The notes: a model not told the origin generated them from the sequence alone. Counted from the stretch's first letter, positions 11,822 to 56,306 are shown. The stretch: 64,000 bases of DNA from Longimicrobiales bacterium (GCA_965238005.1 OZ250165.1:4480001-4544000), one strand, 5' to 3'. Numbers and translations are program-made.

Positions 11822-11872
11822 CGGTGGCTCACTCCTCAGGAGATGTCCTTCTGTCGCGAATACCGCCTGTCC

Positions 11873-16694: not shown

Positions 16695-16715
16695 CAGTAT
16701 ACGTGCCGTATACTG
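16695..16715. promoter_or_regulatory. Perfect 9-bp inverted repeat, candidate operator
   Basis: CAGTATACG-TGC-CGTATACTG in an AT-rich patch about 120 bp upstream of the amidohydrolase. Confidence 0.5.
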
Positions 16716-16795
16716 AGTAGAGAAAGGCGCCTGCCCCCCGGAGCGATCTAAGAGGCCGCGATGCATCCGTTTCGTGGAGAAACGTGGTTCTCGGG

Positions 16796-21154: not shown

Positions 21155-21429
21155 GGCTGCGGTTAGGCGAGAGACGGGATCGGGCACGGGCGCACTCCGG
21201 GATCAGTCCGTGGTCAACATCCGAGAGCGGTCCGGTAGGCGCAAGCGGAAGCCCTCCAGACGCTTGTAATCGCGTTCTGAGCGTCTTCGGGGTTTATTCG
21301 GTATCCTGGGTAGGGTAGCGCGTCCTCGTGGCCTGTGGGTGGCGAAAACCTCGTCTGGCGCGAGATTACTGACCTTTCACGGTTCGATGAGAGCGGGTGT
21401 GGATGTGGGATTGGGTACGTATCGTGGGC

Positions 21430-36464: not shown

Positions 36465-37622
36465 TTATCGGAATCGTAGCGTTCCGGAGGCTTCCACCCC
36501 GATCAGCCCGTGGGTCGTCCCGTCCGGCGCCTTGAGGCGTCCCACGTTCACCTTTGCCCGCGGGAAGAAGTCGAGCCCCATGATCCGTAGGGGCAGGTCG
36601 AAGCCTCCGCCCAGGATCCAGCTGGCACCTGCGTCCACCTCTCCCGGTTGCGTGCCCAGGTCCTGAAGTCGGAAGTCCACGATTGGTCGCAAGTAGAGCG
36701 TCGATCTGATGGGAATCGCACCTCTCAGGCTCGCGAAGAGGAGGTTCTGCGTATTGGTCGCGACGAGGGAGTCGCCCACGATGTCCCCGGTGGAGTTGAG
36801 TATCTGCGGGCTCAGATCTCCCTCGGCGCGCCAGACGTCGGCGGCCGAGACGCTCCACGTGGTGCTTCCCGCACGAAATGCGTAGGTCGCGTCGACGCGT
36901 AGACGCTTGCCCGACTGGAAGAGGTTCCGGCCACCGAACTCGTCCGATTGAAAGGACTGGAGCGTGAACCCGGCGGTGAACTTCCCGGTCTCACCCACGT
37001 TCCGGTCGAGGCCGACTCTTATGCGCAGCTCGTTTCCCGGCGAATAGGCCAGGCTGGTATCGGAGCGCGGCTCGAATTCGTCCGCCGCTCGATAGCTCAC
37101 GCCCAGGCCCAAGCCCCACGTGCCGAGACTGTGCGCCGTGGCCACTCCGGTCGTGACATAGGTTCCCGTGCCCCAGTTCGACTCCCGGAAGCCCAGGATG
37201 TCCGAGGAAAGCACGGACGCCACCACGGCCTCCTCGGAGTCGTGGGTGACGTTGCCGGTAGGCAGGTTCACGCCAAGCGTGAGGATAGCCCAGGGCGAGG
37301 CCAGGTAGCTGAAGTGTAGCCTCGTGTCTACCACACCGTTGAGGACGGAGACCCGGCCGTCCCGCTTAACGCGGCCCTCCGCCCAGGCGGAGAAGAGCTC
37401 CGCCGAGAACTTGTCGCCCGCGGGGAGCCGGTAGGCGATGGGGATCATGAGCAGCTGGGCCGCATCGACTCCCAGATCGTCATCGAAATCGTAGCCTTGG
37501 TAGACGGCCGAGACACCCAAGCTCTGTACGTTGGTCTGGGCTGCAGCGTGGGTGTGGGCTCCGAAGCTGCCCACGGCTCCGAAGACCAGGATCGCGAACA
37601 GGGAGAAGTGTCTAGTGCTCAT
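36465..37622 (-). CDS. Putative outer-membrane beta-barrel protein
   Basis: Signal peptide (AAA|QT); alternating amphipathic strands rich in G and aromatics; C-terminus GTLRFR. Confidence 0.65.
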   Translation of the reverse strand: MSTRHFSLFAILVFGAVGSFGAHTHAAAQTNVQSLGVSAVYQGYDFDDDLGVDAAQLLMIPIAYRLPAGDKFSAELFSAWAEGRVKRDGRVSVLNGVVDTRLHFSYLASPWAILTLGVNLPTGNVTHDSEEAVVASVLSSDILGFRESNWGTGTYVTTGVATAHSLGTWGLGLGVSYRAADEFEPRSDTSLAYSPGNELRIRVGLDRNVGETGKFTAGFTLQSFQSDEFGGRNLFQSGKRLRVDATYAFRAGSTTWSVSAADVWRAEGDLSPQILNSTGDIVGDSLVATNTQNLLFASLRGAIPIRSTLYLRPIVDFRLQDLGTQPGEVDAGASWILGGGFDLPLRIMGLDFFPRAKVNVGRLKAPDGTTHGLIGVEASGTLRFR

Positions 37623-38998
37623 TGCTCACCTCCCGGCCGCCGTATACTGATGGTCACCCGGGCCCTGGTCGTCGCCGTGCCCTCCTGCTGCGTGGCCTCC
37701 TGGGAGGAGTCACGCTCCGAGGCCTGCTTGTTATCCTGCCCCGCACTCGTCGTGGTACCCTGGTCGATGACCGTGGCCGTCGCGCTCGGGTTCACGTCCT
37801 GCGACGTCTCCTGCAGCAGGTTGTCGGTGGGAGCGATGTCGCCGGCGTCGGCCACACCGGTCACCCCCGACGTCTCACCGGCCGAGGCATCCTGGATGTC
37901 GGCGGTAGTGGTCGCCGCCGCGTCGTCGAGGCTCTGGGCCTCGGTGTTGGCCGTCTGCGCCGCGTCGAAGGTGGGATCGATGGATGCGGCCTGCTGGAAG
38001 AAGTCGGAAGCCGCCTGGAAATCGCCCCGGTCCATGGCCATGAGGCCCTCGCCGTAGGACAGGAACGCCAGGATGCTCTCGGCCCGGTTCTCGTTGATGG
38101 CCTCGCGCTCGGCGGGCGTCAACACCGCTCCGAGCACGTCGAGAATCTGGAATACGAGACCCTTCTCCATGTCGAAGATGGCCTCGAGCTCGTCCTGATC
38201 CGATACCGATCCGGCCGCCTGGGCCCGCACGGTGTTCATCACCTCGGCGTCGAACTGGATATTCTCCTGACCCAGGGTCGTGAGCACACCCTGGACCACG
38301 TGCTCCGACCTCAGGAGCCTACCCGCCCGGGCTCCCGTAACCGGATCGGCGTAGCCGGCCTCCGACAGCGCCATCTCGTCGAGGAGCGACTGGATCTGTG
38401 TCCGCTCCAGGACCGTCAGAGCGTTGGAGATGGCGAGATCGGTGATCATCATGTCCGCAAGAGCCACCTGAAGTGGCAGCAGGCCCTCGTCGTCCGAGAT
38501 GAGCCGGAAGGGGAACACCGCCACGGTGCGCGGCTCCGGAGGCTCGGTGGCCAGCTCGGCTTCTTGGGCCAGGGCGGCCTGGGCGGCGGACTGCAGCTCG
38601 TTCCGAACGATGAGCAGGAGGCGATCCTCCAGATCGTCCTTGAGGGGACCCCAGTTGCCCACATCGAGGTACGTAGTGTAAGCCTCTCTGGCTCCGGCCC
38701 AGTCCTCCAGCGACTCGTTGGACAGGCCGAGATAGAGATAGGCCGCCCCGGATTCGGCGCCCACCTCGACGGCGTTGGCCAGCGTCGTGCGCGCCTGCTC
38801 GAAGCGACCGTCCTTGTAGAGGGCTATGCCCAGACGGGTCTGGGCGGTAAGGTCACCAGGATTCTGAGAGAGCTGCTCCTGGAGACTGGGGATTTGGGCG
38901 GGATCGGCGTCGAGGCCCTGTCGCGCACAGCCGTCCAGCAACAAAGGGAGGACGAGTAGGAGCGAGAGGTGCCGGGTACTGTTCCAAGCCAAGGACAT
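37619..38998 (-). CDS. Lipoprotein: TPR + CsgG/HfaB-like domain + TPR + acidic T/Q/D-rich tail
   Basis: Lipobox LDGC; TPR helices; TVAVFPF…LTVLERTQIQSLLDE…ARAGRLL. Confidence 0.75.
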   Translation of the reverse strand: MSLAWNSTRHLSLLLVLPLLLDGCARQGLDADPAQIPSLQEQLSQNPGDLTAQTRLGIALYKDGRFEQARTTLANAVEVGAESGAAYLYLGLSNESLEDWAGAREAYTTYLDVGNWGPLKDDLEDRLLLIVRNELQSAAQAALAQEAELATEPPEPRTVAVFPFRLISDDEGLLPLQVALADMMITDLAISNALTVLERTQIQSLLDEMALSEAGYADPVTGARAGRLLRSEHVVQGVLTTLGQENIQFDAEVMNTVRAQAAGSVSDQDELEAIFDMEKGLVFQILDVLGAVLTPAEREAINENRAESILAFLSYGEGLMAMDRGDFQAASDFFQQAASIDPTFDAAQTANTEAQSLDDAAATTTADIQDASAGETSGVTGVADAGDIAPTDNLLQETSQDVNPSATATVIDQGTTTSAGQDNKQASERDSSQEATQQEGTATTRARVTISIRRPGGEQ

Positions 38999-39206
38999 CG
39001 GAAGCTTCCAGCAGGGGAAACGAATGCTCCATACAGGACGGGATTCCGCGGGCCATATAGAAGACTCGCACTCCCGTCGGAGTGGTCCTAAATTCACGGT
39101 GAGGGCTCCCGGCGGGCAAACGAAATCTTGCTCCTTTGGCCCGCCGTTTGCGCCCGCCGGCGCTGTGGCTCGGAGGGGTGAGCCCTCGCCTCGAGGAGGA
39201 TTGGTC

Positions 39207-39908
39207 TTGCGCATCGACGCCCCCCTTTCAGTTGCCGCGGTGGTGCTGGCTCTCGGCGTTGCGGTGCAACCTGTTCACGCCCAGAACCCTGACGTGCCCA
39301 CGGTGGCCGTACTGGACTTCACCGGTCTCATGCTCGGCTCGGCGGGCAACTCCGCCCCCCTGGGCAAAGCCGTCTCCAGCATGCTCATCACGGAGCTCAT
39401 CGGTAATCCCGGTCTTCAGGTCATCGAGCGATATCAGCTCCAGGACCTGCTCATGGAGCAGCGACTGGCTCTGTCCGGCAGGGTGGACGAGGGCACGGCC
39501 GTCGAGATCGGCAAGATGGTGGGTGCCCAGTACATGATCTACGGCCAGGTCACGAGCATCGCCGAGCAGCTACGGATGGACATGAGAGTCGTCGACGTGG
39601 AGACGTCGGAGGTGGTCGAAGCCCAGAAGATGAACGACAAGACGAGCGAGCTTCTGTCCGTGGTTGTGCGCATGGCGGACTCCTTCGTGGAGAAGCTGGA
39701 CCTGGATCCCCCGTCGTCCAGGGCGAAGATGGAGCCGATCCCGGTGCGGGCCACCGTAGAGTTTTCCCGTGCCGTCGATTTCGAGGACAAGGGTGAGATC
39801 GAGCAGGCCCTGGAGCATTACAGGGCGGCACTCGAGATCCACCCAGCCCACCGCGCTGCTCGACAGGCGGTCGATCGACTGGCGGCGAGCGGCGAGGACG
39901 ACCGATGA
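39207..39908 (+). CDS. Exported CsgG/HfaB-like protein with C-terminal TPR
   Basis: GAGGAGGA RBS; signal peptide (VHA|QN); VAVLDF, VIERYQLQDLLMEQ, AVEIGKMVGAQY, RVVDVETSEV. Confidence 0.8.
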   Translation: MRIDAPLSVAAVVLALGVAVQPVHAQNPDVPTVAVLDFTGLMLGSAGNSAPLGKAVSSMLITELIGNPGLQVIERYQLQDLLMEQRLALSGRVDEGTAVEIGKMVGAQYMIYGQVTSIAEQLRMDMRVVDVETSEVVEAQKMNDKTSELLSVVVRMADSFVEKLDLDPPSSRAKMEPIPVRATVEFSRAVDFEDKGEIEQALEHYRAALEIHPAHRAARQAVDRLAASGEDDR

Positions 39909-41695
39909 CGAAAGCACTCCGAGGGGCGGTCGCTTGGACGCCCGCCCTGACGCTCGCCTGCATGGCTCTGATTCCGGATGGGCTGGGCGCCCAACAGGAT
40001 GCCGAGATCGCGTTCGACACGGATCTGCCACGGGTCCTGGTCTTCATCCAGGAGGAAGACGGGCAGATCGCCGCCCGTGAGATGACCAACTTCCTGCTCG
40101 AGGGGGGCTTCCCGGTGGTGGATCCGGCCTTGGCGTACACGGCCGCCCAGAGGGAGCTGGTGCAGGCGGCGCTGGGTGGGGACGAGGGTGCCGCTACGAG
40201 CCTGGGTCGTGACTTCGGGGCGCAGGTGCTGATTCTGGGGCGCGCGGACTGGGGCGCCCGGCCCGACAGGGTGGATCAGACCGCCATCACCGCCACGGGA
40301 GAGGTGGCTGTGCGCGCGCTGCGGCTGGATCTGGGCAGAGTCATCGCCACGGCGGAGGGTGACGGCGGGCGGGTCCTGGAGGCCACCGAGCAGCGCGGAA
40401 AGGCGCGGGTCCTGCGAAAAGCCACTCAGGAAGTGCTCGAGAACACCTCCTTCCTCGGCCAGCTCATGAACAATTGGGTCGACGAGCCTTGGGAGAACGC
40501 TCTCTACTGGGTGCCGGACCCCGGCTCCGTCCCCGCCGAGATGGCTTCTGCGGCCCGGGGGGCCGGTCCCGGACTCGCGATACTTCGTGCCGACGTCTCA
40601 CCGTCCACCCAGGCGGGGGCCACCCGTGGACTCGGCGTGGTGAAGAAAGGGGACCGGTCCTCGGATCTCTTCAACCCGATCCGCATCGAGGGCGTTGTCA
40701 TCGGTGAGACCAGAGGTGTGGAGGTCGAGGGCAAGCCCGCCAACCTCATCGACCTCGAGGAAGGCGAGGCAGAGCGCCTGGGCGTCGAGGGGCAGACGGC
40801 CCAACGGTTCTGGGCGGAGACCAACCTGCCCATGAGCCAGGATTCGGTCAGGGTTGTGGCGGAGGGGCCCGGTGGCTCCACCACCGAGGCCGTGGCCGCC
40901 CCACGCATCGACGAGCGCTGGGCCGTGGTGATCGGCGTGGGCCAGTACGGGAGCGCCGATATCCCGGACCTCGAGTTCGCTGGCGCGGACGCACGGGCCG
41001 TGTACGAGTTTCTTACGAGCTCCGCTGCGGGACCCTTCGAGGAGGATCACGTTCGCTTCCTCACCGACGAGGAGGCCACCGGCGAGGCCATGCGGGATGC
41101 CCTTTTCGTCTTCCTGCAGCAGGCCGACTGGGACGACCTCGTCTTCATCTACTATGCTGGCCACGGCGCGCCGGACCCCAACCGTCCGGACAACCTCTAT
41201 CTGCTGCCTACCGACAGTGATCTGGACGCTTTGGCGTCCACAGCGTTCCCGATGTGGGACGTCAAGACGGCCCTACGGCGACAGATCGCGTCCGAGCGCG
41301 TGATCGTGGTTGCCGACGCTTGTCACTCTGCCGGGACGGCGGACGGCGACGTGGTCGGGGGAGCGGAGGGCAACGCCATCGCCGGCGGCTTCGCTCAGCT
41401 TTTCTCGCCGTCCAGGCGGCTTATGATGACGGCCGCCGATACGAACGAGTTCTCCCTCGAGGACGCACGGTGGGGAGGCCACGGAGTGTTCACGCACTTC
41501 CTTCTGGACGGGCTCAGGGGGAACGGTGACGCCAACGCGGACGGCGTCGTAACGTTCAGCGAGATCTTCGACTACGTGAGCAAGAACGTGATCTCGGCCA
41601 CCGAGGGCCGTCAGAATCCGCAGCGGTCCGGGTTCGGGGACATACCCCTCGCGGTGGTGGAGACGGCCGGCACCGGGGACGGTGGAGGTCGGTAG
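39905..41695 (+). CDS. Exported caspase-family (peptidase C14) protein with N-terminal CsgG/FlgT-like domain
   Basis: Signal peptide (LGA|QQ); WAVVIGV, YYAGHG, DACHS, HGVFT, DANADGVVT, QNP. Confidence 0.88.
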   Translation: MTKALRGAVAWTPALTLACMALIPDGLGAQQDAEIAFDTDLPRVLVFIQEEDGQIAAREMTNFLLEGGFPVVDPALAYTAAQRELVQAALGGDEGAATSLGRDFGAQVLILGRADWGARPDRVDQTAITATGEVAVRALRLDLGRVIATAEGDGGRVLEATEQRGKARVLRKATQEVLENTSFLGQLMNNWVDEPWENALYWVPDPGSVPAEMASAARGAGPGLAILRADVSPSTQAGATRGLGVVKKGDRSSDLFNPIRIEGVVIGETRGVEVEGKPANLIDLEEGEAERLGVEGQTAQRFWAETNLPMSQDSVRVVAEGPGGSTTEAVAAPRIDERWAVVIGVGQYGSADIPDLEFAGADARAVYEFLTSSAAGPFEEDHVRFLTDEEATGEAMRDALFVFLQQADWDDLVFIYYAGHGAPDPNRPDNLYLLPTDSDLDALASTAFPMWDVKTALRRQIASERVIVVADACHSAGTADGDVVGGAEGNAIAGGFAQLFSPSRRLMMTAADTNEFSLEDARWGGHGVFTHFLLDGLRGNGDANADGVVTFSEIFDYVSKNVISATEGRQNPQRSGFGDIPLAVVETAGTGDGGGR

Positions 41696-41721
41696 GGATC
41701 CAATCTAGCAGCTTCCAGAAT

Positions 41722-41754
41722 CCCGCCCGGTCTGCCCCGGGCGGGCTCCTTTTC
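41722..41754 (+). terminator. Intrinsic terminator between convergent operons
   Basis: CCCGCCCGG-TCTGCC-CCGGGCGGG followed by CTCCTTTT. Confidence 0.6.
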
Positions 41755-41765
41755 GTTGGGGGCGA

Positions 41766-43580
41766 CTAGAACTCTCGCCAGTCGCCCTCCAGGATCTTGT
41801 GGTACACCTCGGACGCCAGCAGCAGGTCCACCACGGCCTGGTCAAGCATGCCATCCTGGGCCTCCATATTCAGGATGTCGAGGGCCCTCGTGGCGGGAAG
41901 GGCGCGCTTGTACGGACGGTCGGAGGCCGTGAGGGCGTCGAAGATGTCGGAGACCGTCATGATCCGGGTCTGGATCGCGATCTCAGACGCGCCGATACCG
42001 CGGGGATAGCCGGTCCCGTTGAGCTTCTCGTGGTGCCCATGGGCGATGTCGGCCACCCTCGCGAGATCGCCGGTCCACGGAATCTGCGTGAGGAAGTTGT
42101 AGGTGTGAGTCACATGGGACTCGATCTGCTTCCGCTCGTCCGGATCCAGTGATCCCTTTGGGATCGAAAGGAAGTGGAGCTCTTCCGGCGTGACGTAGGG
42201 TACCTGCCGGTCCTCGAAGTCCAGGAATGTCGCAGCGGCGATGTCGTTCAGAATTTCCGCGCTGGCCTCGGGAAGAACCCTCGGCTCGTTGGACTCGCGG
42301 ATGGCCTCATGGAATCGGTCCAACTGTTCGAGGGAGCTCTCGTACGCCTCCTCGAGGCCTCGGAGAAAGACGTCGAACCCGTCCTTGCCGTCCTGCAGGA
42401 GGTGCTCAGCCTTCTTCTGATGGAAGTCCGACTCGAGCGTGCGACGGATCAGATCGAAGCGAGCCTCGATCCGTTCGAGGAGCACTGGCGGCAGCTTCTT
42501 GGGCTTCACGAGAACGTTCTCCCGAACGCCCACCTTTCCGAAGTCGTGCAGAAGGCCCGCGTAGCGCAGCTCCTTCATCTGCTCGCGCGTGAAGCTGGTG
42601 TCCTTGAATGGACCGTCACCAGCCCGGTCGGCCACCTCGGCGACGTCGCAAGTCAGGGTCGACACGCGCACCGAGTGTCCCGACGTGGTCGGGTCCCGCT
42701 GGTCGATGGCGATGACGGCGGCCTTGATGAAGCCCTCGAAGAGGTCCTCGATGTCCCGATAGAGCTGTCCGTTCTCGATGGAGACGGCCGCCTGCCCGGC
42801 AAGGGACTGGACCAGCTCGACCTCCCTGGTCTCGTAGGGAAGCACGTACTCGTCCGCGGTGGCCTCGTCACGGATCACACCCTCTGGATCCGACTTCCGG
42901 TTGATGAGCTGGAGCACGCCGACCACGGCATCCCGATGGTCCTTCATGGGGACCACCAGCATGGACTTGGCCCGGTAGCCCACCTCCTCTTCGAACGCAC
43001 GGTTGAACGAGTAGGGCGCCGACTGGGGAATCTCGTACGCGTCGTCGATGATGAGTGGCTCCCCGTGCAGGGCCGTAAATCCCGCTACGCTGGTCTCATC
43101 GAAGGGAAGCGAGAAGTCCGGGGTCGGTAGATCGGGGAGAGAGGCATTCTGAGCCCGCAGGAAGTGGAGTGTCTTCTCTCCGTCGTCCCCCTCTTCGACC
43201 AGATACAGACTCCCGGCATCGCTGTCGGTCAGCCGTCGGGCCTGGGTGAGGATCATGCCCAGGAGTGAGTCGGGATTGCGCTCGCTCATGAGTGCCATTC
43301 CCACCCTGTTCAGCCCTCGCAGGTCTCCGTGGACCTGGCTCAGCTGAGCGTCGGCTGCCGCTCTCGCCCCGGACCCGTCGGCCAGGACGGTCACGTGACT
43401 GGGCACCGACCCCAAGTCGCCGGTCTCGCAGAGTCCGTCGGAGAGGACCAGGACCGCTGCCCCGTCATGGGCCGAGACCTCGGTCAGGCTGGAGATCTCC
43501 ACGACCTCCACGCCGTCGCCTAGAGCGGCCAGAGCCTGCGACGCGTTCCCGGTTTGCGCGAAGATCAAGAGCTTCGTCAT
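41766..43580 (-). CDS. GAF + HD-GYP phosphodiesterase (HD domain with helical insertion)
   Basis: DAGSLYLV, GVLQLIN; TSGHS, LHDFGK, HHEKLNGTGYP, DIFDALT…RPYK. Confidence 0.9.
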   Translation of the reverse strand: MTKLLIFAQTGNASQALAALGDGVEVVEISSLTEVSAHDGAAVLVLSDGLCETGDLGSVPSHVTVLADGSGARAAADAQLSQVHGDLRGLNRVGMALMSERNPDSLLGMILTQARRLTDSDAGSLYLVEEGDDGEKTLHFLRAQNASLPDLPTPDFSLPFDETSVAGFTALHGEPLIIDDAYEIPQSAPYSFNRAFEEEVGYRAKSMLVVPMKDHRDAVVGVLQLINRKSDPEGVIRDEATADEYVLPYETREVELVQSLAGQAAVSIENGQLYRDIEDLFEGFIKAAVIAIDQRDPTTSGHSVRVSTLTCDVAEVADRAGDGPFKDTSFTREQMKELRYAGLLHDFGKVGVRENVLVKPKKLPPVLLERIEARFDLIRRTLESDFHQKKAEHLLQDGKDGFDVFLRGLEEAYESSLEQLDRFHEAIRESNEPRVLPEASAEILNDIAAATFLDFEDRQVPYVTPEELHFLSIPKGSLDPDERKQIESHVTHTYNFLTQIPWTGDLARVADIAHGHHEKLNGTGYPRGIGASEIAIQTRIMTVSDIFDALTASDRPYKRALPATRALDILNMEAQDGMLDQAVVDLLLASEVYHKILEGDWREF

Positions 43581-44491
43581 CGCATCAGCCAGTCTGCCTT
43601 GTCGAAGGCCGCGCTCGCGCCCTCCAGGTCACCGAGCGCGTCAAGGATCTCGCCCTTGAGCAAGAACACGTCTGCGCTCAACTCCTCTTCGTCCAGGAAA
43701 GCCAGGGTAGCCGAAGCGTCATAGAAGAGCCCGACTTCCCGGTAGACCGCCGCGGCCATGAGGGCGCCGTCTCCGGTAGGATCCAGGCCGGCCGCGGCCA
43801 AGGACTCGAGCGCTCCTGCCACCTCGCCGTGCTCCTCACCGCCCAGGACCAAGAATCGCTGCTCGCGCGTCGGCCGGCCGGAGCCGGAGGGCGCCACGGT
43901 CCAGGCGTACGTCTGGCCCCTGAGCAGGTCCGGAGCATCGGTGGGCAGCGCCCAGGTCGTGTCGGAGGTCTCATAGCGGGTGATCCCGCCCTCCAGATTC
44001 CGGACCTGGATCATGTAACCGGTGGCGCCTTCCACCGAGTGCCAGAAGAACGTGGGGCGCGCGTCCATGACCGGGAGGCCGTTCCTGGGCGCGATCAGAA
44101 CCGGCTCGCCGGGGATGGGACGGATCATCCCCTGTCGATTGGGATTGCCGCGGGCGTCGGTGGTGGCGGCGCTGGCGAGGACTCGCATGGTCCTCGAGAA
44201 GGCGCCCGCCTCGGAGTCGCCGCTGGCTGCGGGAATGGTCAGCGTCTCCGTCACACGTTGTGTGCGGCCGGTGGCATGGACGATTACCGCCTCTCCTCCA
44301 CCTGTGATGATCTGATCCCCGCTGGCCAGCCGGGTGCCGACCGCGGCCGCAATGGGGGCACCATCCCCCAGGATGACCTCGACAGCCCCCTGAACACTCA
44401 CTACCACGGCTGCGGGAGCCTCTTGGATCGGGGGTCCCCCGTTTGCTCCGAGGAGCAGGAACGAGCTCGTTGCGATGAGAAGCTTCTTCAT
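43577..44491 (-). CDS. Exported DUF928-like protein (FecR-like N-terminus, Ig-like core, TPR-like end)
   Basis: Signal peptide; VVSVQGAVEV…LASGD; RPTFFW…GQTYAWTV; YREVGLFYDA. Confidence 0.65.
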   Translation of the reverse strand: MKKLLIATSSFLLLGANGGPPIQEAPAAVVVSVQGAVEVILGDGAPIAAAVGTRLASGDQIITGGGEAVIVHATGRTQRVTETLTIPAASGDSEAGAFSRTMRVLASAATTDARGNPNRQGMIRPIPGEPVLIAPRNGLPVMDARPTFFWHSVEGATGYMIQVRNLEGGITRYETSDTTWALPTDAPDLLRGQTYAWTVAPSGSGRPTREQRFLVLGGEEHGEVAGALESLAAAGLDPTGDGALMAAAVYREVGLFYDASATLAFLDEEELSADVFLLKGEILDALGDLEGASAAFDKADWLMR

Positions 44492-44511
44492 AACTGACTC
44501 CAATGGGCTCC

Positions 44512-46732: not shown

Positions 46733-46798
46733 GGCATCACGGTCGAGCCGTGTCGGGGCCCCAGCCCAGCGGATCAGGCACGGTCGAGAGGCTCGGCG

Positions 46799-48682
46799 CT
46801 AGTTGTGGATCTCGTACATCAGCGACGCACTCCCCCACGAGTCGAGACGCACGGCTCCATCGGAACCCTCCGCCGGGCCGGCGGCCCTGCGAACGGCGTC
46901 AGCAATGAGATCGGCGAGCTCGAGCTTGCCCGCGGTGAAATCGTCACCGACGGCGATGTCCAACGGTTCCGGTGTCAGGAAGGCGCGGACCATTCCGCGG
47001 CCAGCCGGCGGCATGGCCTGGATCTCGAACTCCATGCTCTCGGTCGGGAACTCGATTCGCTGTCCCGCGGTCACCGCGTTCTCCCGGTCGTACGGGTTCG
47101 GGAAGAGTACGGTGACCGTCCCGTCGGTACCGAGGTCGACGAGGGTCAGGTATCCGCTGCGCTCGGCCTCGGCCAGGAAGCGCACGTTCTCGCCGATGCC
47201 GAAGCTGGACACTCCGCCGGCGAGCCAGACCTCGAGGCTGAACGACTGTGCCGGGTTCTCCATGTCGCCGAGCCTCTTCGCGGAGGCCTCACGCATGAGG
47301 GCATCGGCCAGGTCGGTGGCGCCCTCGGCGCCGGCCGGGAAGACGTGCCGTGCCGCCCCGTCCATTCCAACCACCCGGATGTCCATTCCCCGGCGCCGCA
47401 GCAGCAGATCGGAGTAGGACTCCTCATCATGGATAAGCACGATCGCCTCGGAGCCCTCGATGGCGCTCGCCAGAGCGTCGGCGGTGCCGGTGTCCGCCCC
47501 GGCGACGTTGACTCGCAGAGGGCTGGACGGGAAGCGATAGCCCTCCAGGGTCGCCCGATCACCCTCGCTCACGGATCCCGTCAGGACTCTGGCTTGGGAG
47601 CGGTCCGAGCTCACCGACTCCACCACCATGCGGGCGCCGTCGGCCGTGCTGAACGTCGATCCCAAGGTGATCCCAAGCGCCTGGCCGCCCTGTAGCTCAG
47701 CCGTGGAGCCACTGATGGAAAGCACGGGCAGAGACGCCGAAGACGTGCCCCGGGACCCGCCCTCCACGAAGAAGAGTGGAAGCGACTTGGACGCCACATC
47801 CTCGGAGAGGTAGGGGTCCTGCTCGAAGCGATTTCTCTTGAGGTGGTCTGACACCCGGCGGTATGCGTCCTCGTACGACATGTCCGCCGGGGCCCTCCAG
47901 AGCTCCCGGATGAGGAAGGTCGTGAACGCCCCGCCGTGGAACGGGTCCGCGCCGTTCTCCCCCGGGAAGAAGGCGTCCACGGCCGGCTGGTCGGGCTGGG
48001 CGGCGGCGAGCTCCAGGACGTTCGCGCCCTGGGAGTCGAAGCCCGTCCGGTCTCTCTCGTTCGCGAGTGCGCGCCGGGAAATGGTCGCCGGCCTGTCGAT
48101 CTCGGATACGTCCCGTCCGAGCTGGCGTGTTCGGGAGAACGGAGTGACGTCGCGCGTTCCCGATCCGGAGCTGCAGTTGTCCAGGAACACCACGACGTTG
48201 TCCGTCGGGAGGGCCCGGAGCCAGGCTCCGAACTCGTCGTCGCTGATGTCGAACTCGGTCGAAGTGGGGCTGACGTCGGCGGGGGCCAGCGTCTCGTCCA
48301 GACCATCGTCCTCGTCGCCGCTTTCGTCCCACATCTGCGAGCCGTGTCCGGCATAGAAGACGGTGACATTGTCGCCGGGACGCGCCCGCTCGGGCAGCCA
48401 CTCCGTGAGGGCGACCTCGATGTTGGCGCGGGTGGCTTCCTGATTCAGGAGCATCCGGATGTTGTCCGGCGGGAAACCGTACCGGCTGAGGAGAACGTCC
48501 CGCATGCCCCGTGCATCGTGCTCCGCACCGGGGAGGTCGCCACCTGTTACGTCGTCATAGTGGATGTAGTCACTGATTCCGATGATCACCGCCCAGTGTG
48601 TGGGAGCGATGCGTTCGGCGGGCCCGAAGGCGAGCAACGGTACGGCTGCCATTGCCGCCACCACAGGGGCGAAACGTCTCAC
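46799..48682 (-). CDS. Exported metacaspase-like C14 protease with C-terminal DUF4384-like domain
   Basis: Hydrophobic N-terminus; WAVIIGI, FYAGHGSQ, DESGDEDDGLDE, DNCSSG, GAFT; GYLTLVDLGTDGTVTVLFPN. Confidence 0.88.
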   Translation of the reverse strand: MRRFAPVVAAMAAVPLLAFGPAERIAPTHWAVIIGISDYIHYDDVTGGDLPGAEHDARGMRDVLLSRYGFPPDNIRMLLNQEATRANIEVALTEWLPERARPGDNVTVFYAGHGSQMWDESGDEDDGLDETLAPADVSPTSTEFDISDDEFGAWLRALPTDNVVVFLDNCSSGSGTRDVTPFSRTRQLGRDVSEIDRPATISRRALANERDRTGFDSQGANVLELAAAQPDQPAVDAFFPGENGADPFHGGAFTTFLIRELWRAPADMSYEDAYRRVSDHLKRNRFEQDPYLSEDVASKSLPLFFVEGGSRGTSSASLPVLSISGSTAELQGGQALGITLGSTFSTADGARMVVESVSSDRSQARVLTGSVSEGDRATLEGYRFPSSPLRVNVAGADTGTADALASAIEGSEAIVLIHDEESYSDLLLRRRGMDIRVVGMDGAARHVFPAGAEGATDLADALMREASAKRLGDMENPAQSFSLEVWLAGGVSSFGIGENVRFLAEAERSGYLTLVDLGTDGTVTVLFPNPYDRENAVTAGQRIEFPTESMEFEIQAMPPAGRGMVRAFLTPEPLDIAVGDDFTAGKLELADLIADAVRRAAGPAEGSDGAVRLDSWGSASLMYEIHN

Positions 48683-48693
48683 GGCGTGGGCTC

Positions 48694-49608
48694 CTAAAGC
48701 AGGATGTCGGCCAGTTCGGCCGCGGCGTCGACCTGAAAGCTATATCCGAGGGAGAGGGCCTCGTCCCGGTGTGACGACACCAGCTCGGAGAGCTTCTCGT
48801 CGTGACGCTCGGGATCGTGGTGAAAGAAGAGGAGCCTCTTCGCGCCCACCTCGTCAGCGAGATGGAGCGCCTGGCGGAAGGTAGAATGCCCCCAGCCCAG
48901 CTTGGACTGGTACTCCTCCTCGGTGAACATGGCGTCGTGGATCAGAACGTCCACATCGCCCACGAAGTCGATGAACTGGCGATGCCAGTCCTCGCCCACG
49001 TCGTAATCCTCTCCCGCGATCTCGTTGTCCGGGATGTAGGCGAGGGACGCACCTCCGTACTCGATGCGATACCCGACCGTGAAGGACGGATGTCTCATTC
49101 GCATAGCCGATACGCTGAACCCGTCGTCCTCCCAAACGCCCTCGTTCAGATGGGAGAACTCCTTGTGCGCAGCGAGAGCGTCGAAGGGGATCGGGAAGTA
49201 GATCGGCCCCATCTGCCCGGCGAAGAGCGTCTGAATGTCCACGTCGAACTGCTTGGGACCGATGATTTGGAGCGACGCGGTGGGGTTGTACAAAGGCACG
49301 AAGAATGGGAACCCCTGGATGTGGTCCCAATGGAAGTGTGTGAGGAAGATGACGGCGTCGGTGGCGCCATCCTCGCTCATCATGTGCGAGCCGAGGGGAC
49401 GGATCCCCGTGCCGGCGTCGAAGATGAAGCGCCGGCCGTCGTCGAGGCGCACCTCCATGCAGGGTGTATTCCCCCCGTATTTGGCGGTCCCTGGGCCCGG
49501 ACTGGGGATAGACCCTCGGGTTCCCCAGCAAACTGCCTCGATCACGGGGTGTGCCTCCTCGGTCTCCATCGTCGTGGCCGGCGAGGCGGCGTCCATCGCT
49601 TGCTCCAC
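48694..49608 (-). CDS. MBL-fold metallo-hydrolase (phosphodiesterase-like)
   Basis: WGTRGSIP, YGGNTPC, DAGTG, THFHWDHIQG, WGHS, FHHDP. Confidence 0.88.
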   Translation of the reverse strand: MEQAMDAASPATTMETEEAHPVIEAVCWGTRGSIPSPGPGTAKYGGNTPCMEVRLDDGRRFIFDAGTGIRPLGSHMMSEDGATDAVIFLTHFHWDHIQGFPFFVPLYNPTASLQIIGPKQFDVDIQTLFAGQMGPIYFPIPFDALAAHKEFSHLNEGVWEDDGFSVSAMRMRHPSFTVGYRIEYGGASLAYIPDNEIAGEDYDVGEDWHRQFIDFVGDVDVLIHDAMFTEEEYQSKLGWGHSTFRQALHLADEVGAKRLLFFHHDPERHDEKLSELVSSHRDEALSLGYSFQVDAAAELADILL

Positions 49609-49892
49609 CCGAACTCTCCCGGTGAGTCGTCAGCGCCTCGAGATACTCTTTGAATCTACTTGAGCGAGGCCGGTTTCGGCGAGGATTTTCGTTCTTGTGG
49701 CTACGCTAACCAGACGGATCGGGGTTGCGCGCATGGGCGCGGAACCCCTGTAGTCCGCCGGCCCGATGCGGTTGCCGATGACTTCTCAGTTGCCTCCCCG
49801 GGCTCGCGGGTCGAGCGTGGGATCTCCGATGCCCAGCACTCGGTGCCGGGGATATGAGCACTGCTGACACGTGCTCCGACCCAGCCGGCCCA

Positions 49893-52800
49893 CTAGAGGC
49901 AGGGCATGTTGCCCACGTTCACCGGAGCAAGCGCGAACGCGGAGCCCGGGTTTCTGAGGTCGATGGTGGCGATCAACGCGTCAACGTCCTCCTCACAGAG
50001 CATCGGGTTCAGCTGAATGGTGAAGCCGCTCCCCACCGCCGGCGTCGCGCTCGTGGTGCCTATGCCCGACAGCCCACTCACGCTCGTGAGCGATGCGTTC
50101 CCCGACACGAACACTGTCCACAGGGGCGATGTGATGCCGCCCAACGCGTCCAACGAGGTGAGCGCGTCATTGTTCGAGATGGTTATTCCACGGTTTACGG
50201 TCGTGAGGAGGGTGAAGTCCAACGTCGTCAAGAACGGGTTGTTTTCGATTCGGAGCAGTCCGTAGGTGGTGCTCACACCTACTCCTGCCCCGAGCAGGGC
50301 TAGCTTCGGGAACGAGACACTCGTGAGGCCGTCATTGTTTTCGATGACGAGCGTCTCGCCCACGGTGACCAGTGCGCCGAGCGGCCCAAGGGTCGTCAGC
50401 ATGGGGTTGTCCGAGATGTGCAAGTCTTCCTGGATCGTGGCCAGCATCGGCGCCGTGAACGAGGTGAGGTTGGGCTGACCTCTCAGGAAAAGATCGTCGC
50501 CGACGAACGTGAGTGCGGGGAACGAGAGGCTCTCCAGACCGTCGTTGCCGTCCGCCGCACCAGACTCCGCCATGTCGATGTCGTCTTCAACCCTCTCCAG
50601 GCTCGAGAAGTCGAGAACCAGGGGTGTCCCGCCGGTCCCGTTTTCCCACACCTCCATGTCGTCGCCGATGGTGACGAGGCTCGGCAGGGACAACAACCGG
50701 AGCGCCGGATTATCCACGACGTCGAGGTCGTCGGCGATCGTGTGCAGCACGGCGAACGAGGCGGTCTCCAGATTAGTGTTCCTCTCCAAGTCGATGTTGT
50801 TGCCGATCGACTCGAGGCCCGGGAAAGCAGTCTGGATCAAGTTGAGATTGTCCAACACCTTGACGTCGTCGCCTACGATGGCGAGAACGGGCAGGTTGAT
50901 CGTCGCCAGTCCGGGGGTGTTGGCGATGGTGAGATCGATCCCGATCTCTTCGATTCCATTCAGGCCCGCGACATCCGTCAGCGACAGGTTATTTGTGATG
51001 GTGACGTTGCCCGTGACCTCCCGGATCGTCTCGAGGCCGTCGAGGTTGGTCACCGACGTTCCCTCGACCCTCAAGCTGCCCTCGATCTTGATATAGCGGG
51101 CGGCCGCGGCTTCGGCGAGGGTCATTACGCCGACGCCGGGGGAGTCGCTGATGACCAGATCGCCGACGTGTGCCTTGAAGACGTCAGTGAGGATGACGAA
51201 GTCGGCCCGCCCCGTCGGGTTGTTCGGATCGAGCGTGACGCTGGCCGACGAGGGCGAGAACCCCTTGTAGTCGGCTCTGGGGAGTGGGTGGACCGTGTAG
51301 CTGCCGGCGAACAGGCCGGGGAACCGGTAGTGGCCGTCGACATCGCTCTCCGTCTGCATGAGGAGTGTGGAGCCCTGTCTCAGTTCCACTTCGATGATGC
51401 GGATGGGCTCGGGCGCCGCCGCAGGGCTGCCCTCGGCCTCGCCCGGTACCGGTGATGCGGCTCCCAGCGTGAACGTGCCCTCGATGAACGAAGTGACCGT
51501 GGCGAAGAAGTCCGAGCCCGTCCCGTTCACGAACACACGGAACAGGGCGTCGCCCGGTGCCGCCGAGGGCGCCACTCCGGTGAGCGTGCCCGTGAGCGTG
51601 CTGCCGCTCGCGTTGAGCTTGGGCGACGAGCCCGCCCACGTCACTTGGTCGATGAGCGGGATCACGTCTCCGTTGATGTCCAGCGGCTGGAGCATCACCT
51701 CCACGCTCGAGCCCACCTCGACCTCCGGTGTCTCCGGGCTGATCGTGACTCTCCGAACCTCCGGCGTCGCCTCCACCTCCACGTTCAGCACATCGGTCGT
51801 GACGGTCAGCGCCGTGGGCGGTGCCCTCGTGATCGCGAATCCGGCAGGTGCCGCATACGCCGCCGTGTAGTCGCCCGCCAGGATCCCGTCCAGGAAGAGC
51901 GAGCCCGACGCGTCCGTCACACCCGACGACGCCTCGGTGCCGCCCTGCGTGAGGACCACGCCCAGACCCGCCACCGGTGCGCCCCACGGCGTCACGGCCG
52001 TCACCGCCACGCTCCCGAAGATGGGCGTGTAGGGGAACGTCGCCTCGCTCGTGAGCGTCGCCACCCGGATACCTCCGGCCGCCACACCCCGGGGCACCAC
52101 GACCCGGATGCTCGTGGCCGTGATCTCCAGCACCTCGACCTCCACCTCACCCTCAGACGTCGGGAAGAACACCCGCGTGTTCGACGCGATGATCGGATCG
52201 AAGCCGCTGCCCAGGATCAGTGCTTCCTGGCCGGGGATCGGTACCTCGGGATCGAGTCCCGTGATGTCCACTGGGGGCGGAGGAGAGGGAGGCGTGAAGC
52301 CGCCGCTCGCGCTGCCCCACGCCGGATCCGCGCCACTGATGCCCAACGCCATCGGAGGACTGCCTCCGTCCACGGGCGCCACCATCAGCCCGTCGCCTCC
52401 CGCGTACAGCGCCCAGCCGCCCTGGATCGCAGGCCGGGAGCCCGTCACAACGCCCGGCACCGGACCCGAGCCCTGGATGAACACCTGGCCTTCTCCGTCC
52501 AGATAGGCCAGCCGTCCCTCCGCCGTCACCGTCGGGAAGCTCGCAGCGCCCGGGATCAACAGGTTCCGGCTGCCGCTCACCACGTCCACCAGCTCGATGG
52601 AGCCGCCACTCACGTACAGACTCGTGGCACCCGCCCACGCGGGCAGCGAGCCCGCCGGCCCCTCCGACTCCCCCGAGCCGTCGGCGTTGGCCAGCAGCAG
52701 CACCCCGCCCCCGTCCGCCGCGATCTTCGTCCCGTCCGGCGACGGAGCAGGCCACGAGCCCGACATGATCGCAACGCCCGAGATGAAGACCATCCTTCGC

Positions 52801-53674
52801 CGTACATCACCCCGTTGCCCGTGGGCACAGGGCCGTGCGCTTCGCCCGTCCCCGCGATCACCCGCGCCGTGCCGCCCACCACAGGGGCCGTCATCACCAT
52901 GCCGCCCTGGATGAACGTCATCTCCCCGCCGAACACGTAGACCCACACGCTGGCGCTCAGACCCGTGGGCGTCGTCACAGTCACGAGCGTCCGGCCGCCG
53001 CCGCCGCCCGTCACCGTGCCGGCGTCGTTGACCGATGCCACTCCGGTCGAGGCCACCGTCCAGCCCAGCGGTACGTCGGCCAGCACGCTGCCGTCGCTCC
53101 CCAACACCTCCGCCTCGAACGTCCGACTCCCGCCCGGAGGCAGCACCGCGCCCGTCGACAGGATCTCGACCCCCACCGCATCGGCGCCCGGACCCTCGTA
53201 CGTGAGTGGTACGGAGAACGGTGGCGGAGGCGTGGCGGTCTGCGTGTCGGTCGTCGCCACCGTGAGGGGTGGCGACTCGAAGAGCACGGTCTCGCCCTGC
53301 ATGGCGATGATCGTGACGCACACCGGCTCACCGGGCGTGATCCCCGGAAGCTCCACCGACAGGTCGTACACGTCCTCGCCGGGCGTCACCTCGAAGATCA
53401 CGTCCAGCAGCACTTCGGTGCAGCTCACATCCTTGACGATCAGCCGGAAGCGGTCCACCCGGTCGAACGCCTGGCTCAGGGCGTCCTCCTGGGCGGCGCT
53501 CAGAGCGGGGGCGCCCGGTGCCACCGCATAGCTGAGCTGAGGCACCAGGTGGAGCACGTGCGGCCGTTCGTCCGTGGCCGGACCAGCCACGGGGCCGTCC
53601 ACGCAAGAACCGAGCAGCAACGCGGAGACTAGAGCTACCAATCCCGGGAGGGAGACCGGCCGACGTGCCTTCAC
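49893..53674 (-). CDS. Large surface lipoprotein: Ig-like, TolB-like repeats, IPT/TIG, carboxypeptidase-regulatory-like and receptor-L-domain repeats (frameshift near 52795)
   Basis: Lipobox LGSC; VASVNDAGTVTG; PAPSPDG/PAW repeats; ILGSGF; many LxxIGDDLxIxxNxxL repeats. Two ORFs join at YGEG|MVFISG with one base missing. Confidence 0.75.
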
Positions 53675-53853
53675 GGGGGGACCTTCCAATCCTTCAGCGA
53701 CAGAGAGGGACTTTAATCGCCCCTCCTTCCAATCTTCGTGCACTTCCACCCTCTTGCAAGCGAAAATCCCACGACCGGATGAGGCCCTTTTCCGGTCCTT
53801 CCGACCGGGAGTATGTTTTAGTCCCTCACTTCCACCGAGCAGGAGTGCCTTGA

Positions 53854-55032
53854 GTGGCCGCTGAACCCCGTGATCTGTCCTTGGACGAAGTGATGGAGAT
53901 GCTCCGACACGTCGACCTCTTCCAGGGACTGCCGGACGACGAGCTCAGTGGCGTGAGCGAGGTCGTCAATGGCGTGACCGCACAGGATGGTGAGGTACTC
54001 TTCGAGGAGGGAGAGCCCGGCGACTGCTTCTATGTTGTGTCAAAGGGCGCCGTGGAGATATCGAAGGGCGTTTCGGGGGGCGGAACAGATAAGCTCGCGG
54101 TCCGCAGGGCCGGTGAAGCCTTCGGGGAGATGGCCCTCTTGAACGACGCCCCCCGCTCAGCTACGGCCAAGGCGATGGAGGAAACCGAGCTGCTGACCTT
54201 GTCGCGTGAGGACTTCGAGCAGCTCGTCGGCGGCGACGGCCTCGCGATGCGCATGTTGCAGGTGCTCTCGAAGGCTCTCCGTGCCCTCGACGTTCGGTTT
54301 GCGAGCCTCGAGCGGGGCGTCCCGAGTCCGGTAGTGACGGGGGGCGGAGCCGACGACGCCAACCGGGCTCTACAGCGCGCGATCATGCCAAGGAGCGCCC
54401 CGACGGCCGACGGGTTCGACATCGCCGCCGGCACGATGCTGGAAGAGTCGGGCGCCGGCCGGACCGCCTGGGAGACCGTCCGCTTTGCCGACGGGAGAGC
54501 GGGCTTGGTGACCATGACGGTCCACGGAGACGGGCTTCCACCCGCCCACCAGTTGGCCCTCGCCCGGGCCTTCCTCAACGAGTTCGCACGGACGGGTCAA
54601 TCGACGGAGTCGCTTTTCGCAGCCGTCAACGACGGTCTGTCTCACAACGAGACGCCCGGCGTCGATCAGACGATCGCGGCCGGGATGTTGGTGCCAGGCG
54701 ACGGTTCCGTGCTCTGGTCCGGAGCGGGTGATGTCCGAGGCGCGGTGATCCGCAGGGACGGAACTCTGGACGAGTTCCCGTCCCACGGCCCCCCCCTGGG
54801 CATGCTGGACGGCTTCCAGTACGGAACCCAGGAGTACGAGATCGGCACGGGCGACATGGTGATCGTCCTCTCGACGGGCTCGACCGGTCTGTTCAGGGGG
54901 GCGGCCGACCTGGTCTCCACCCTGCAGCAGAAGCCCGCCGGAGAGGTCGTGGCGACCGTGCACAAGGCCATCCGGAAGCTCCAGGGCGAGGACGTCAAGG
55001 AGACTACGGTCCTATTCATGAGGAAGCACTAG
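53854..55032 (+). CDS. cNMP-binding domain + degenerate PP2C/SpoIIE domain
   Basis: LFEEGEPGD…FGEMALL…PRSATA; SpoIIE-like LQRAIMP, GFDIAA, GPPLG, GDMVIV, but the catalytic Asp residues are missing. Confidence 0.85.
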   Translation: MAAEPRDLSLDEVMEMLRHVDLFQGLPDDELSGVSEVVNGVTAQDGEVLFEEGEPGDCFYVVSKGAVEISKGVSGGGTDKLAVRRAGEAFGEMALLNDAPRSATAKAMEETELLTLSREDFEQLVGGDGLAMRMLQVLSKALRALDVRFASLERGVPSPVVTGGGADDANRALQRAIMPRSAPTADGFDIAAGTMLEESGAGRTAWETVRFADGRAGLVTMTVHGDGLPPAHQLALARAFLNEFARTGQSTESLFAAVNDGLSHNETPGVDQTIAAGMLVPGDGSVLWSGAGDVRGAVIRRDGTLDEFPSHGPPLGMLDGFQYGTQEYEIGTGDMVIVLSTGSTGLFRGAADLVSTLQQKPAGEVVATVHKAIRKLQGEDVKETTVLFMRKH

Positions 55033-56187: not shown

Positions 56188-56306
56188 TTTTAGCTATCGT
56201 GTCGTATATGGCATCCAGATGAAGATGACTGGACCCCCAATTCCGCTCCGTGATGTTGGGGTGTCAAGCATTTTTCGGACCCCCGGCACTCGGAGCTAGA
56301 TCAGTC

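Follow-up and report, generated by a model that had tools for sequence, protein, structure and literature searches.

The region between positions 36465 and 55032 of the window (64,000 nucleotides from a Longimicrobiales bacterium, GCA_965238005.1 OZ250165.1:4480001-4544000) contains eleven genes, here called g01 to g11, which, g10 apart, very probably belong to a conserved, co-inherited system of two modules. The core operon comprises an MBL (metallo-beta-lactamase) hydrolase (g09), the caspase-like protease g08, a CHASE2 cyclase (g07), the accessory protein g06 and a GAF-HD-GYP phosphodiesterase (g05), together with the divergent gene g11. The envelope module is formed by the barrel-like protein g01, the putative TPR-CsgG-like lipoprotein g02, the CsgG-like TPR protein g03 and the C14 protease g04, the last two being presumably exported. 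The explanation that we favour, with somewhat less than even confidence, is that in Gemmatimonadota of the Longimicrobiales type these genes make up a lineage-restricted system that connects the periplasm or outer membrane to cyclic-nucleotide signalling, and that it has been inactivated in this genome. Genes were called by listing open reading frames (ORFs) and scanning positions 36465-55032 with Pfam and NCBIfam models. An initial annotation, made from the sequence alone, had described eleven contiguous, coupled genes; all of them were recovered where it placed them and with the domains it gave them, but g07 and g10 turned out to be each split between two frames.

The grouping of these genes is more than chance, since the sole C14 and CHASE2 matches of the genome sit here and the arrangement recurs in relatives. 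The genome, searched as one contig of 4,839,169 bases, gave two matches to Peptidase_C14 (g04 and g08) and one to CHASE2, all of them in this 18.5 kb stretch, in contrast to 21 matches to class III cyclases and 12 to GGDEF. A search for CHASE2 across 60 relatives found orthologues in 16, whose flanking regions were compared. The run of MBL hydrolase, C14-DUF4384 protease, CHASE2 cyclase, g06 and GAF-HD-GYP protein was found, within the limits of each contig, in 14/14 regions from outside the genus, and close orthologues of g01 were found in 12 of these 14 genomes. The alignment of g06 was also scanned over species-representative genomes, yielding 76 loci, all in metagenome-assembled genomes (MAGs) labelled as Gemmatimonadota, Longimicrobiales, or older or narrower names of the same phylum. 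Only loci with enough flank entered the synteny counts, so that the denominators differ by gene: g06 was accompanied by the cyclase domain in 69/71, CHASE2 in 65/67, g08 in 55/58, g09 in 55/57 and g05 in 63/66. Within 10 kb of g06, g11 was found in 33/45, g04 and g03 each in 21/42, and g02 in 13/40; ten loci carried g01 through g09 together. Conservation of the neighbourhood across Gemmatimonadota had been left by the initial annotation as a point to check: the genes are not scattered, and the core recurs in nearly all of the 76 loci. With the phylum sampled evenly, the g06 profile matched in 4 of 251 genomes, each belonging to a family of the window's own order.

The frequencies of the envelope genes raise the question of whether the two modules belong together. 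It could be that two unrelated units, a cyclic-nucleotide (cNMP) operon with one protease and a lipoprotein/protease module of the envelope next to the phosphofructokinase (PFK) gene, are merely held side by side by order-level gene order, the latter having a job of its own, e.g., envelope maintenance or protein maturation. This is compatible with the direct adjacency of the envelope module in only 21 of 42 loci, with the roughly 9 kb of unrelated genes that lie between it and the core in one genome (G301) and its location on another contig in a second one (G035), with the PFK gene being a conserved neighbour too, and with the modules being transcribed separately, a hairpin lying between the two. 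Nevertheless, we consider it unlikely, because the only two C14 proteases of the genome are divided between the modules, and because the presence of g04 follows that of CHASE2: among the 60 relatives, the N-terminal domain of g04 was found in 14/14 CHASE2-positive genomes from outside the genus versus 4/44 CHASE2-negative ones. Of the latter four, one has an adjacent g06, one has a divergent g06-like gene, and two are only 82% and 87% complete. Moreover, in the five genomes checked among those with no g04 within 10 kb, a g04 orthologue was in every case located 2–13 kb past the locus end, i.e., within about 25 kb; in G301, one of these five, the whole envelope module (C14, CsgG, TPR-CsgG-TPR and g01-like genes) is intact behind the unrelated genes. 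Finally, the deletions in G001, G002 and L038, described below, take away parts of both modules together.

Two genomes with no CHASE2 match contain divergent g06-like genes (G033:C5:15751-26843, E 1e-62, and G025:C46:6546-7367, E 6e-40). The one in G033 adjoins g04-like and g01-like genes, and a locus of this type may be a cyclase-less variant of the system.

Concerning the components of the two-module system, g07 is encoded on the minus strand, like the rest of the core operon. The 5′ part of the gene (45662-46732) codes for an N-terminal transmembrane helix and a periplasmic CHASE2 domain (PF05226, E 3.5e-25, 89.5 bits versus a cut-off of 26.3 bits), and the 3′ part (44512-45661) for three transmembrane helices and a class III cyclase domain (Guanylate_cyc, PF00211, E 1.3e-24, 87.2 bits). 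The earlier identification of a CHASE2 adenylate cyclase is correct as to the presence of the two domains, but sensor and cyclase are not in one polypeptide here. The cyclase contains FSDLAG, DKYIGDA and VNLGAR, and the Asp, K..GD and N..R motifs are conserved over 62 aligned sequences; we take them to be the metal-binding Asp, the substrate Lys and the transition-state Asn/Arg, and the Lys plus Ser/Thr pattern is presumably that of class IIIb adenylyl cyclases. The AlphaFold2 model of the CHASE2 domain (pLDDT 85.5) had no Foldseek match in the PDB at E ≤ 1e-3, and its profile gave nothing better than E 0.38 against PDB sequences. With VIA-align, the best Z was 5.2, with generic alpha/beta domains (Mur ligase C-terminal domain, solute-binding proteins and subtilisins). 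The idea that CHASE2 could be an inactive caspase-like fold pairing with the exported caspases was dropped, as no caspase appeared among 50 structural-alignment rows.

Three other proteins have domains related to cyclic nucleotides. The 604-residue g05 (41766-43580, minus strand) combines a GAF domain (E 4e-14) with an HD-GYP domain (HD_5, E 1.4e-31, 109.9 bits) in which the LLHDFGK and HHEKLNGTGYPRG motifs are conserved; HD and GYP are retained over 63 aligned sequences, with HDFGK in at least 62. HD-GYP is a family of phosphodiesterases of c-di-GMP or cGAMP, normally not of cAMP. The same architecture is found in PmGH, the c-di-GMP phosphodiesterase of Persephonella marina (PDB 4mcw, E 6e-31), from which g05 differs by some 80 additional residues that separate the Pfam HD match from that of HD_5, by its location in a cyclase operon, and by a GAF domain closer to GAF-A of PDE5 (E 3.4e-16), CyaB2 (5e-12) and PDE2A. 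The INRKS...RDE stretch of this GAF domain aligns to the region of the NKFDE motif of PDE5. The resemblance to cNMP-binding GAF domains makes it more likely that g05 is a reader of the cyclic-nucleotide signal rather than the eraser of cAMP that had been initially proposed, and suggests a cross-talk from cAMP to c-di-GMP. The 304-residue g09 (48694-49608, minus strand) is a predicted cytoplasmic MBL-fold hydrolase (Lactamase_B_2, E 1.3e-20) with RNase Z as its best solved relative (E 5e-12) and with HxHxDH kept in 53/53 sequences; it scored 38 bits against the NCBIfam model of cyclic-nucleotide phosphodiesterases, the cut-off of which is 400 bits. The 392-residue g11 (53854-55032, plus strand) joins a cNMP_binding domain (E 2.9e-23), with an intact FGE...RSA cassette and with the regulatory subunits of PKA and PKG as best solved relatives, to a PP2C/SpoIIE domain (SpoIIE, E 3.4e-14, 53.7 bits). 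When aligned with a genuine SpoIIE of the same genome, the DVSTHG, TDG and DDLT motifs of the latter correspond to TVHGDG, STG and ETTV in g11; this genome and close relatives have other residues at the positions of the PP2C Asp, and some distant orthologues keep the first Asp alone. Judged by these substitutions, the PP2C domain is a pseudo-enzyme, so that the earlier description of g11 as a cNMP-binding pseudo-PP2C is borne out. The PP2C part alone gave chance-level matches against the PDB.

The two C14 proteins, g08 and g04, are caspase-like proteases of 627 and 596 residues, respectively, encoded at 46799-48682 (minus strand) and 39905-41695 (plus strand). The first one shows Peptidase_C14 (E 6.5e-23, 82.1 bits) with AGHGS and DNCSSG motifs, followed by a C-terminal DUF4384 (E 3.5e-20); GHGS is present in 57/57 sequences, and all the variants listed for the Cys motif, which is mostly DNC(N/S)SG, retain the Cys. 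The second one shows Peptidase_C14 (E 4e-18, 66.3 bits) with AGHG and DACHS motifs, GHG and DACHS being kept in 26/26 sequences. Both have hydrophobic, signal-like N-termini with Ala-X-Ala-like ends, and hence both look exported. The two exported C14 enzymes announced by the initial annotation are therefore C14 proteins with intact His/Cys dyads, whereas their export stands as a reading of the N-termini by eye. The Asp that comes two positions ahead of the Cys is, in metacaspases specific for Arg/Lys, a residue lining the S1 pocket. Orthocaspases are reported to cleave after basic residues (PMC6426788).

In the AlphaFold2 model (pLDDT 82) of the accessory protein g06 (43577-44503, minus strand, 308 residues), a signal peptide precedes a small beta domain (residues 30-90); further on, the FN3-like sandwich spans residues 135-220, with TPR-like helices after it. 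The linker at residues 96-126 was modelled with low confidence. The sequence R123-Q-G-M-I-R128, followed by Pro, is invariant in 15/15 sequences of the alignment obtained from the loci found through CHASE2, while the Ala-Ala site after the beta domain varies among the 15 orthologues. Foldseek matched g06 to the C-terminal domain of MtxA (E 4e-6) and to FN3 domains, and no LysM match was found with Pfam. Its profile, searched against a library of 1.84 billion proteins, retrieved 13,333 of them, mostly giant proteins that match the FN3-like part only; full-length relatives of about 300 residues were approximately 40 among the best 150 matches. The predictions of a complex between g06 and the CHASE2 domain scored 0.00 and 0.01, values that carry no weight either way.

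In the envelope module, g01 (36465-37622, minus strand, 385 residues) is a probable outer-membrane beta-barrel protein with a signal-like N-terminal segment. It has no Pfam match at E ≤ 0.01: OMP_b-brl matched weakly 2 of 15 orthologues (best E 4.4e-6) and the window copy with E 0.015, and the g01 profile had no match in the PDB. Its Atlas neighbours are hypothetical proteins of Gemmatimonadota, with one cluster containing Phenol_MetA_deg in 11% of its members. The product of g02 (37619-38998, minus strand, about 459 residues from the ATG at 38998) would be a lipoprotein with a lipobox-like LLDGC, TPR, a CsgG/LpoB-like domain, TPR again and a low-complexity tail (TPR_2, E 4e-11; CsgG, E 1.6e-7, profile positions 40-102 of 210). 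That of g03 (39204-39908, plus strand, about 234 residues) has an N-terminus that by eye looks like a signal ending at VHA|QNP, a CsgG/LpoB-like domain (CsgG, E 1.4e-17, profile positions 10-105 of 210; LpoB, E 8e-9) and TPR. In g02 and g03, the stretch matched by CsgG is also the one matched by the LpoB and FlgO models, and the CsgG matches cover the first half of the profile only, leaving out the remainder of the CsgG fold with its pore-forming transmembrane hairpin region. From these profile matches, g02 and g03 are CsgG/LpoB-fold domains with TPRs that do not imply a curli-type pore; the initial reading of two CsgG-TPR proteins is acceptable in this restricted sense, with half a profile in each. 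The N-terminal domain of g04 may belong to the same group: its comparison with g03 by hhalign (probability 37%, E 3.5e-4, 106 columns) and its Atlas scores of 0.76-0.81 with GNA1162, CsgG and LpoB clusters, which are weak leads, are suggestive of a CsgG/LpoB-like domain but do not settle it. The NCBIfam model TIGR04510 (putative peptide modification system cyclase) matched the CsgG-like and TPR part of g03 (E 1.2e-7, positions 281-443 of 814) and, weakly, g02 (E 0.0019, positions 386-459). Going by the name of this model, fusions of the CsgG-like-TPR module to cyclases would exist elsewhere.

Bringing these components together, g07 is the sole membrane-spanning signalling protein, with a periplasmic sensor and a cytoplasmic enzyme, which points to signalling from outside to inside with g06 and g08 upstream. 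That signals travel in this direction, with g06 and g08 acting on CHASE2, is a proposal to which we give a little under even chances. The most likely mode of action would be that regulated proteolysis of g06 controls its availability to CHASE2. The RQGMIR linker, between the beta domain and the FN3-TPR part, would be a plausible site for an Arg/Lys-specific protease of the metacaspase type, although cleavage at this precise point seems to us improbable rather than probable. On its intact form, the cyclase of g07 would make cAMP, to be read by the PDE5/CyaB2-like GAF domain of g05, coupling cAMP to c-di-GMP turnover, and also by the pseudo-PP2C g11, acting as a regulatory partner; the MBL enzyme g09 may reset a nucleotide signal. 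The complete sequence of events, in which g08, perhaps fed by g01-g04, cuts g06 at RQGMIR and frees or unmasks a CHASE2 ligand, so that cAMP reaches both the GAF-HD-GYP/c-di-GMP branch and the pseudo-PP2C, is speculative and, as a whole, rather doubtful. Gene content, motif conservation and co-inheritance are observed facts, while every step of signal flow is inferred. The protease cascade and the processed CHASE2 ligand of the initial annotation find no support in the present findings.

In this particular genome the pathway is most likely non-functional, because an insertion in g07 splits the receptor from the cyclase, g10 is also split, and same-genus genomes carry deletions. The CHASE2 and cyclase domains of g07 lie in different frames as a consequence of a 1-nucleotide insertion near 45664. 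The cyclase frame is open over 44512-45897 and encodes the first transmembrane helix after CHASE2, with no start codon before 45612. Compared to the 96%-identical copy of G001, of the same genus, the window carries an additional T and a C>A substitution immediately after ...CCCATGGGG, giving a TGA at a place where G001 reads through. The insertion was checked in contigs built independently from four public runs (X1, X2, X3 and X5). The X1 contig (depth 16.6), possibly from the source sample, shows no differences to the window over 45432-45965; the X5 contig, from another sample of the same study as X1, has six differing positions, no gap, and the insertion; the X3 contig, from another study (depth 2), is identical to the window and contains the insertion as well; a 97%-similar strain in X2 is devoid of the inserted base. 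All of the 62 other loci that have a CHASE2 as well as a cyclase part encode the two in a single frame. A programmed frameshift in g07 was ruled out, as the insertion is absent from G001 and from those 62 loci.

The second broken gene, g10 (49893-53749, minus strand), codes for a large surface lipoprotein with Ig-like, CarboxypepD_reg and L-domain/LRR repeats in Pfam. Its N-terminal part (52610-53749) and its C-terminal part (49893 to about 52795) are in two frames, owing to the loss of 4 nucleotides in a G-run near 52795, compared to G001, G002, L038 and L039. The ORF 49893-53321 provides the frame in which the remainder continues, but its start at 53321 is an over-extension; the true N-terminus is in 52610-53749, with an LLLGSC lipobox and 43% identity to residues 62-354 of the protein of L025 (E 2e-45). 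The initial annotation of an L-domain surface lipoprotein is confirmed by the Pfam repeats and the lipobox, though the gene is split. The orthologue in L038 is an intact ORF of 1099 residues, and g10 is only partly conserved among relatives. In L039 (2170-2360) the g10 orthologue has a +1 insertion of its own about 40 nucleotides upstream of the site of the 4-nucleotide deletion of the window; as read from the two assemblies, g10 is broken independently in each.

Other members of the genus show larger lesions. G001 has an 839-residue fusion ORF in which CHASE2 and 53 residues from the start of the cyclase part run directly into g02, so that the cyclase domain, g06, g05, g04, g03 and the N-terminus of g02 are missing. 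G002 keeps a CHASE2 remnant only, with PFK directly after it. The g04 domain was found nowhere in the genomes of G001 and G002. L038, a MAG with about 85% identity, is devoid of g03, g04 and parts of g05 and g02, and in L039 the cyclase ORF is intact. The deletion of the cyclase in two same-genus genomes indicates that the system is decaying in the genus. Over the remaining 45 kb of the window, end-to-end coverage of the Pfam profile is seen for most genes. Taking all this into account, we judge that the system is probably inactivated in this genome.

Several points weigh against the interpretation developed so far and should be considered together. There is no direct evidence tying g06 or g08 to CHASE2. 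For g06, the match to DUF928 (PF06051) reaches E 1.5e-3 and 18.8 bits, under the 26-bit cut-off, so that the initial label of DUF928-like protein is not sustained (weak matches appear in 9 of the 15 orthologues, with a best E of 2.8e-4); its beta domain matches the NCBIfam LapA retention module with E 3.8e-6, below cut-off; and FecR (PF04773) appears at E ≤ 1 in 0/15 orthologues. Since the RQGMIRP motif itself served to retrieve the 76 loci, its conservation there is circular, and only the 14 loci found via CHASE2 are independent of that retrieval. Signal peptides and lipoboxes were assigned by eye. With 21 class III cyclases in the genome, the cAMP readers need not serve g07 specifically. All the examples come from one order and PFK is also a conserved neighbour, for which reason common descent, rather than function, may account for some of the synteny. 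As to inactivation, the 4-nucleotide deletion of g10 is known from the comparison of assemblies; about 3 of the 33 cyclase and GGDEF matches genome-wide show stops or splits; some assembly error may lie behind the apparent lesions, g10 included; and the cell might still produce two separate proteins, one from each half of g07.

The weak resemblance of the g06 beta domain to a retention module brings in a comparison with the LapA/LapG/LapD system. Signals could run from inside to outside, as in Lap-like surface remodelling, with cNMP or c-di-GMP levels gating the periplasmic cutting of a retention-type domain and so freeing or activating g10 or g06. Shared with Lap are, besides that domain (E 3.8e-6), the putatively periplasmic cysteine proteases and a cyclic-dinucleotide enzyme, here HD-GYP, at the locus, to which a barrel candidate and an adjacent large lipoprotein with adhesin-like repeats can be added. 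On the other hand, the proteases are of the C14 and not of the C93 family of LapG, the cluster contains neither a LapD-like transmembrane c-di-GMP receptor nor a LapG homologue nor any type I secretion genes, g10 is poorly conserved, and the conserved element of g06 is RQGMIR and not the Ala-Ala site. The sole transmembrane signalling protein has its enzyme output in the cytoplasm, which fits outside-in transmission. We regard Lap-like remodelling as decidedly unlikely; the signalling direction of the cluster is probably the opposite of that of Lap.

The presence of caspase homologues beside a cyclase also calls to mind conflict or cell-death systems, in which a Pycsar- or CBASS-like cNMP signal, or caspases like those of EACC or type III-E systems, would kill the cell upon phage attack or kin conflict. 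The cyclase does match PADLOC PycC profiles (best E 5e-31), g11 matches the cNMP-binding domains of Pycsar effectors, the caspase domain of g04 is closest to the EACC1-associated type (NCBIfam caspase_w_EACC1, 116.5 bits, under the 140-bit cut-off), and the distribution is patchy, with frequent losses. However, the PADLOC matches involve only generic class III cyclase, cNMP-binding and caspase domains, and neither a Pycsar-type effector (TIR or transmembrane) nor an EACC component is present in the cluster. Besides, both proteases appear to be exported, the sensor domain lies in the periplasm, and the genes occupy a conserved site beside housekeeping genes, with no defence island and no flanking mobile elements. 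A role in conflict is, in our opinion, very improbable.

Among known systems, the closest functional analogue of an outside-in pathway of this kind is that of Sinorhizobium meliloti, where CHASE2 cyclases (CyaD1, CyaD2 and CyaK) sense a protein signal via the outer-membrane barrel NsrA (PMC13001267) and where cyaD1 adjoins the gene of a periplasmic FecR-domain protein, SMc02177 (PMC5498481). The cluster too has a CHASE2 cyclase, an exported accessory protein and a barrel-like protein; g01 and NsrA, and g06 and SMc02177, are likened here by putative role. The S. meliloti system is without caspase-like proteases, CsgG-like proteins, GAF-HD-GYP and pseudo-PP2C, and its reader is the CRP-type transcription factor Clr. 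The BiofilmReg operon of Burkholderia encodes a response regulator, a LysM-FecR periplasmic protein and a CHASE2 histidine kinase (PMC5192318); like the cluster, it is a conserved operon with the CHASE2 sensor directly beside an exported beta-rich accessory protein, but its output is a histidine kinase with a response regulator, with no cyclase and no proteases. Metacaspase-CHASE2 proteins of Trichodesmium (PMC3501461) and EACC2-caspase-CHASE2 proteins of conflict systems (PMC8195603) are fusions of a cytoplasmic caspase to its receptor, in contrast to the separate, exported-looking proteases and the cyclase output found here. The statement of the initial annotation that CHASE2 and DUF928 co-occur with CHAT proteases is supported in its first half by Nostoc punctiforme, where CHASE2 is next to DUF928 (PMC5587647); CHAT goes unmentioned in the passage concerned. 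None of the systems compared combines exported caspase homologues, a CHASE2 cyclase, GAF-HD-GYP and a pseudo-PP2C. A published description of this gene set was not found in the literature on CHASE2, FecR, metacaspases/caspases, CHAT, DUF928, DUF4384 and Longimicrobi, in agreement with the initial statement that no characterised system with it was known to the annotator.

To our knowledge, the signals sensed by CHASE2 domains are largely unknown. Bacterial periplasmic caspase homologues have mostly been discussed with regard to cell death. By placing a dedicated accessory protein and an apparently exported caspase-like protease beside a CHASE2 cyclase, the conserved operon offers a concrete hypothesis, which reconstitution could test. 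If it were true, it would be the first worked-out case of CHASE2 activation, in which a relay gated by proteolysis leads from the periplasm to two second messengers, and would assign a role to the periplasmic caspase homologues of bacteria. The cluster suggests a wiring of cAMP to c-di-GMP through a cNMP-type GAF-HD-GYP protein. The three different lesions in one genus are a natural loss-of-function series and, if the proposal holds, their repeated and independent occurrence would mark the system as costly under some conditions.

Concerning gene layout, there are overlaps of 4 nucleotides at g02/g01, g03/g04 and g06/g05, and gaps of 8–66 nucleotides from g09 through g06. Genes g02 and g03 are divergent across a gap of about 205 bp; the ORF of g02 extends to 39214, and this extension overlaps g03 and looks non-coding. 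Between the convergent g04 and g05 there is a GC-rich hairpin (41722-41745, plus strand) of 9 GC pairs followed by a T-rich tail, which is a likely terminator. The cluster consists of four or five transcription units, not one. Terminator-like sites over the region were not above shuffles (7 found, 7.0 expected), a promoter scan of the region did not rise above chance, and no Rfam family was found anywhere in the window. The ORF 44503-45696 (plus strand) is a shadow ORF without family match. The flanking genes are ordinary, namely PFK, a sodium:solute symporter and a pyridoxal phosphate (PLP) decarboxylase.

Some other features of the window are worth recording. A 253-residue protein with a lipobox-like LILGAC and no family match is encoded at 56250-57011 (plus strand); orthologues with 47-54% identity occur near g11 in 9 of 92 loci (L023, L031, L044, L076, L078, L085, L095, L097 and L113), and it could be a further peripheral component of the system. 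A run of M1, DPP-IV/S9, M24 prolidase-like, S10-like and Amidohydro_1 genes at 4186-16854 suggests a peptide-scavenging neighbourhood. It is followed at 16796-19456 (minus strand) by an 886-residue STAND-type cyclase, with an N-terminal class III cyclase domain and then NB-ARC/AAA_16 and TPR, which is one of the 21 cyclase-domain matches of the genome. Two inverted transposase ORFs of 500 residues (19644-21146, minus strand, and 25866-27368, plus strand), with identical Pfam scores (DDE_Tnp_1_6, DUF772 and DDE_Tnp_1), enclose an integrase-core ORF (21335-22339) and an M14 carboxypeptidase, in what looks like a composite-transposon arrangement. The M14 peptidase (23032-24285, plus strand) covers only positions 1-195 of the 286 of its profile, and its ORF overlaps by about 50 nucleotides a family-less one in another frame (24233-25138, plus strand), a possible further frameshift.

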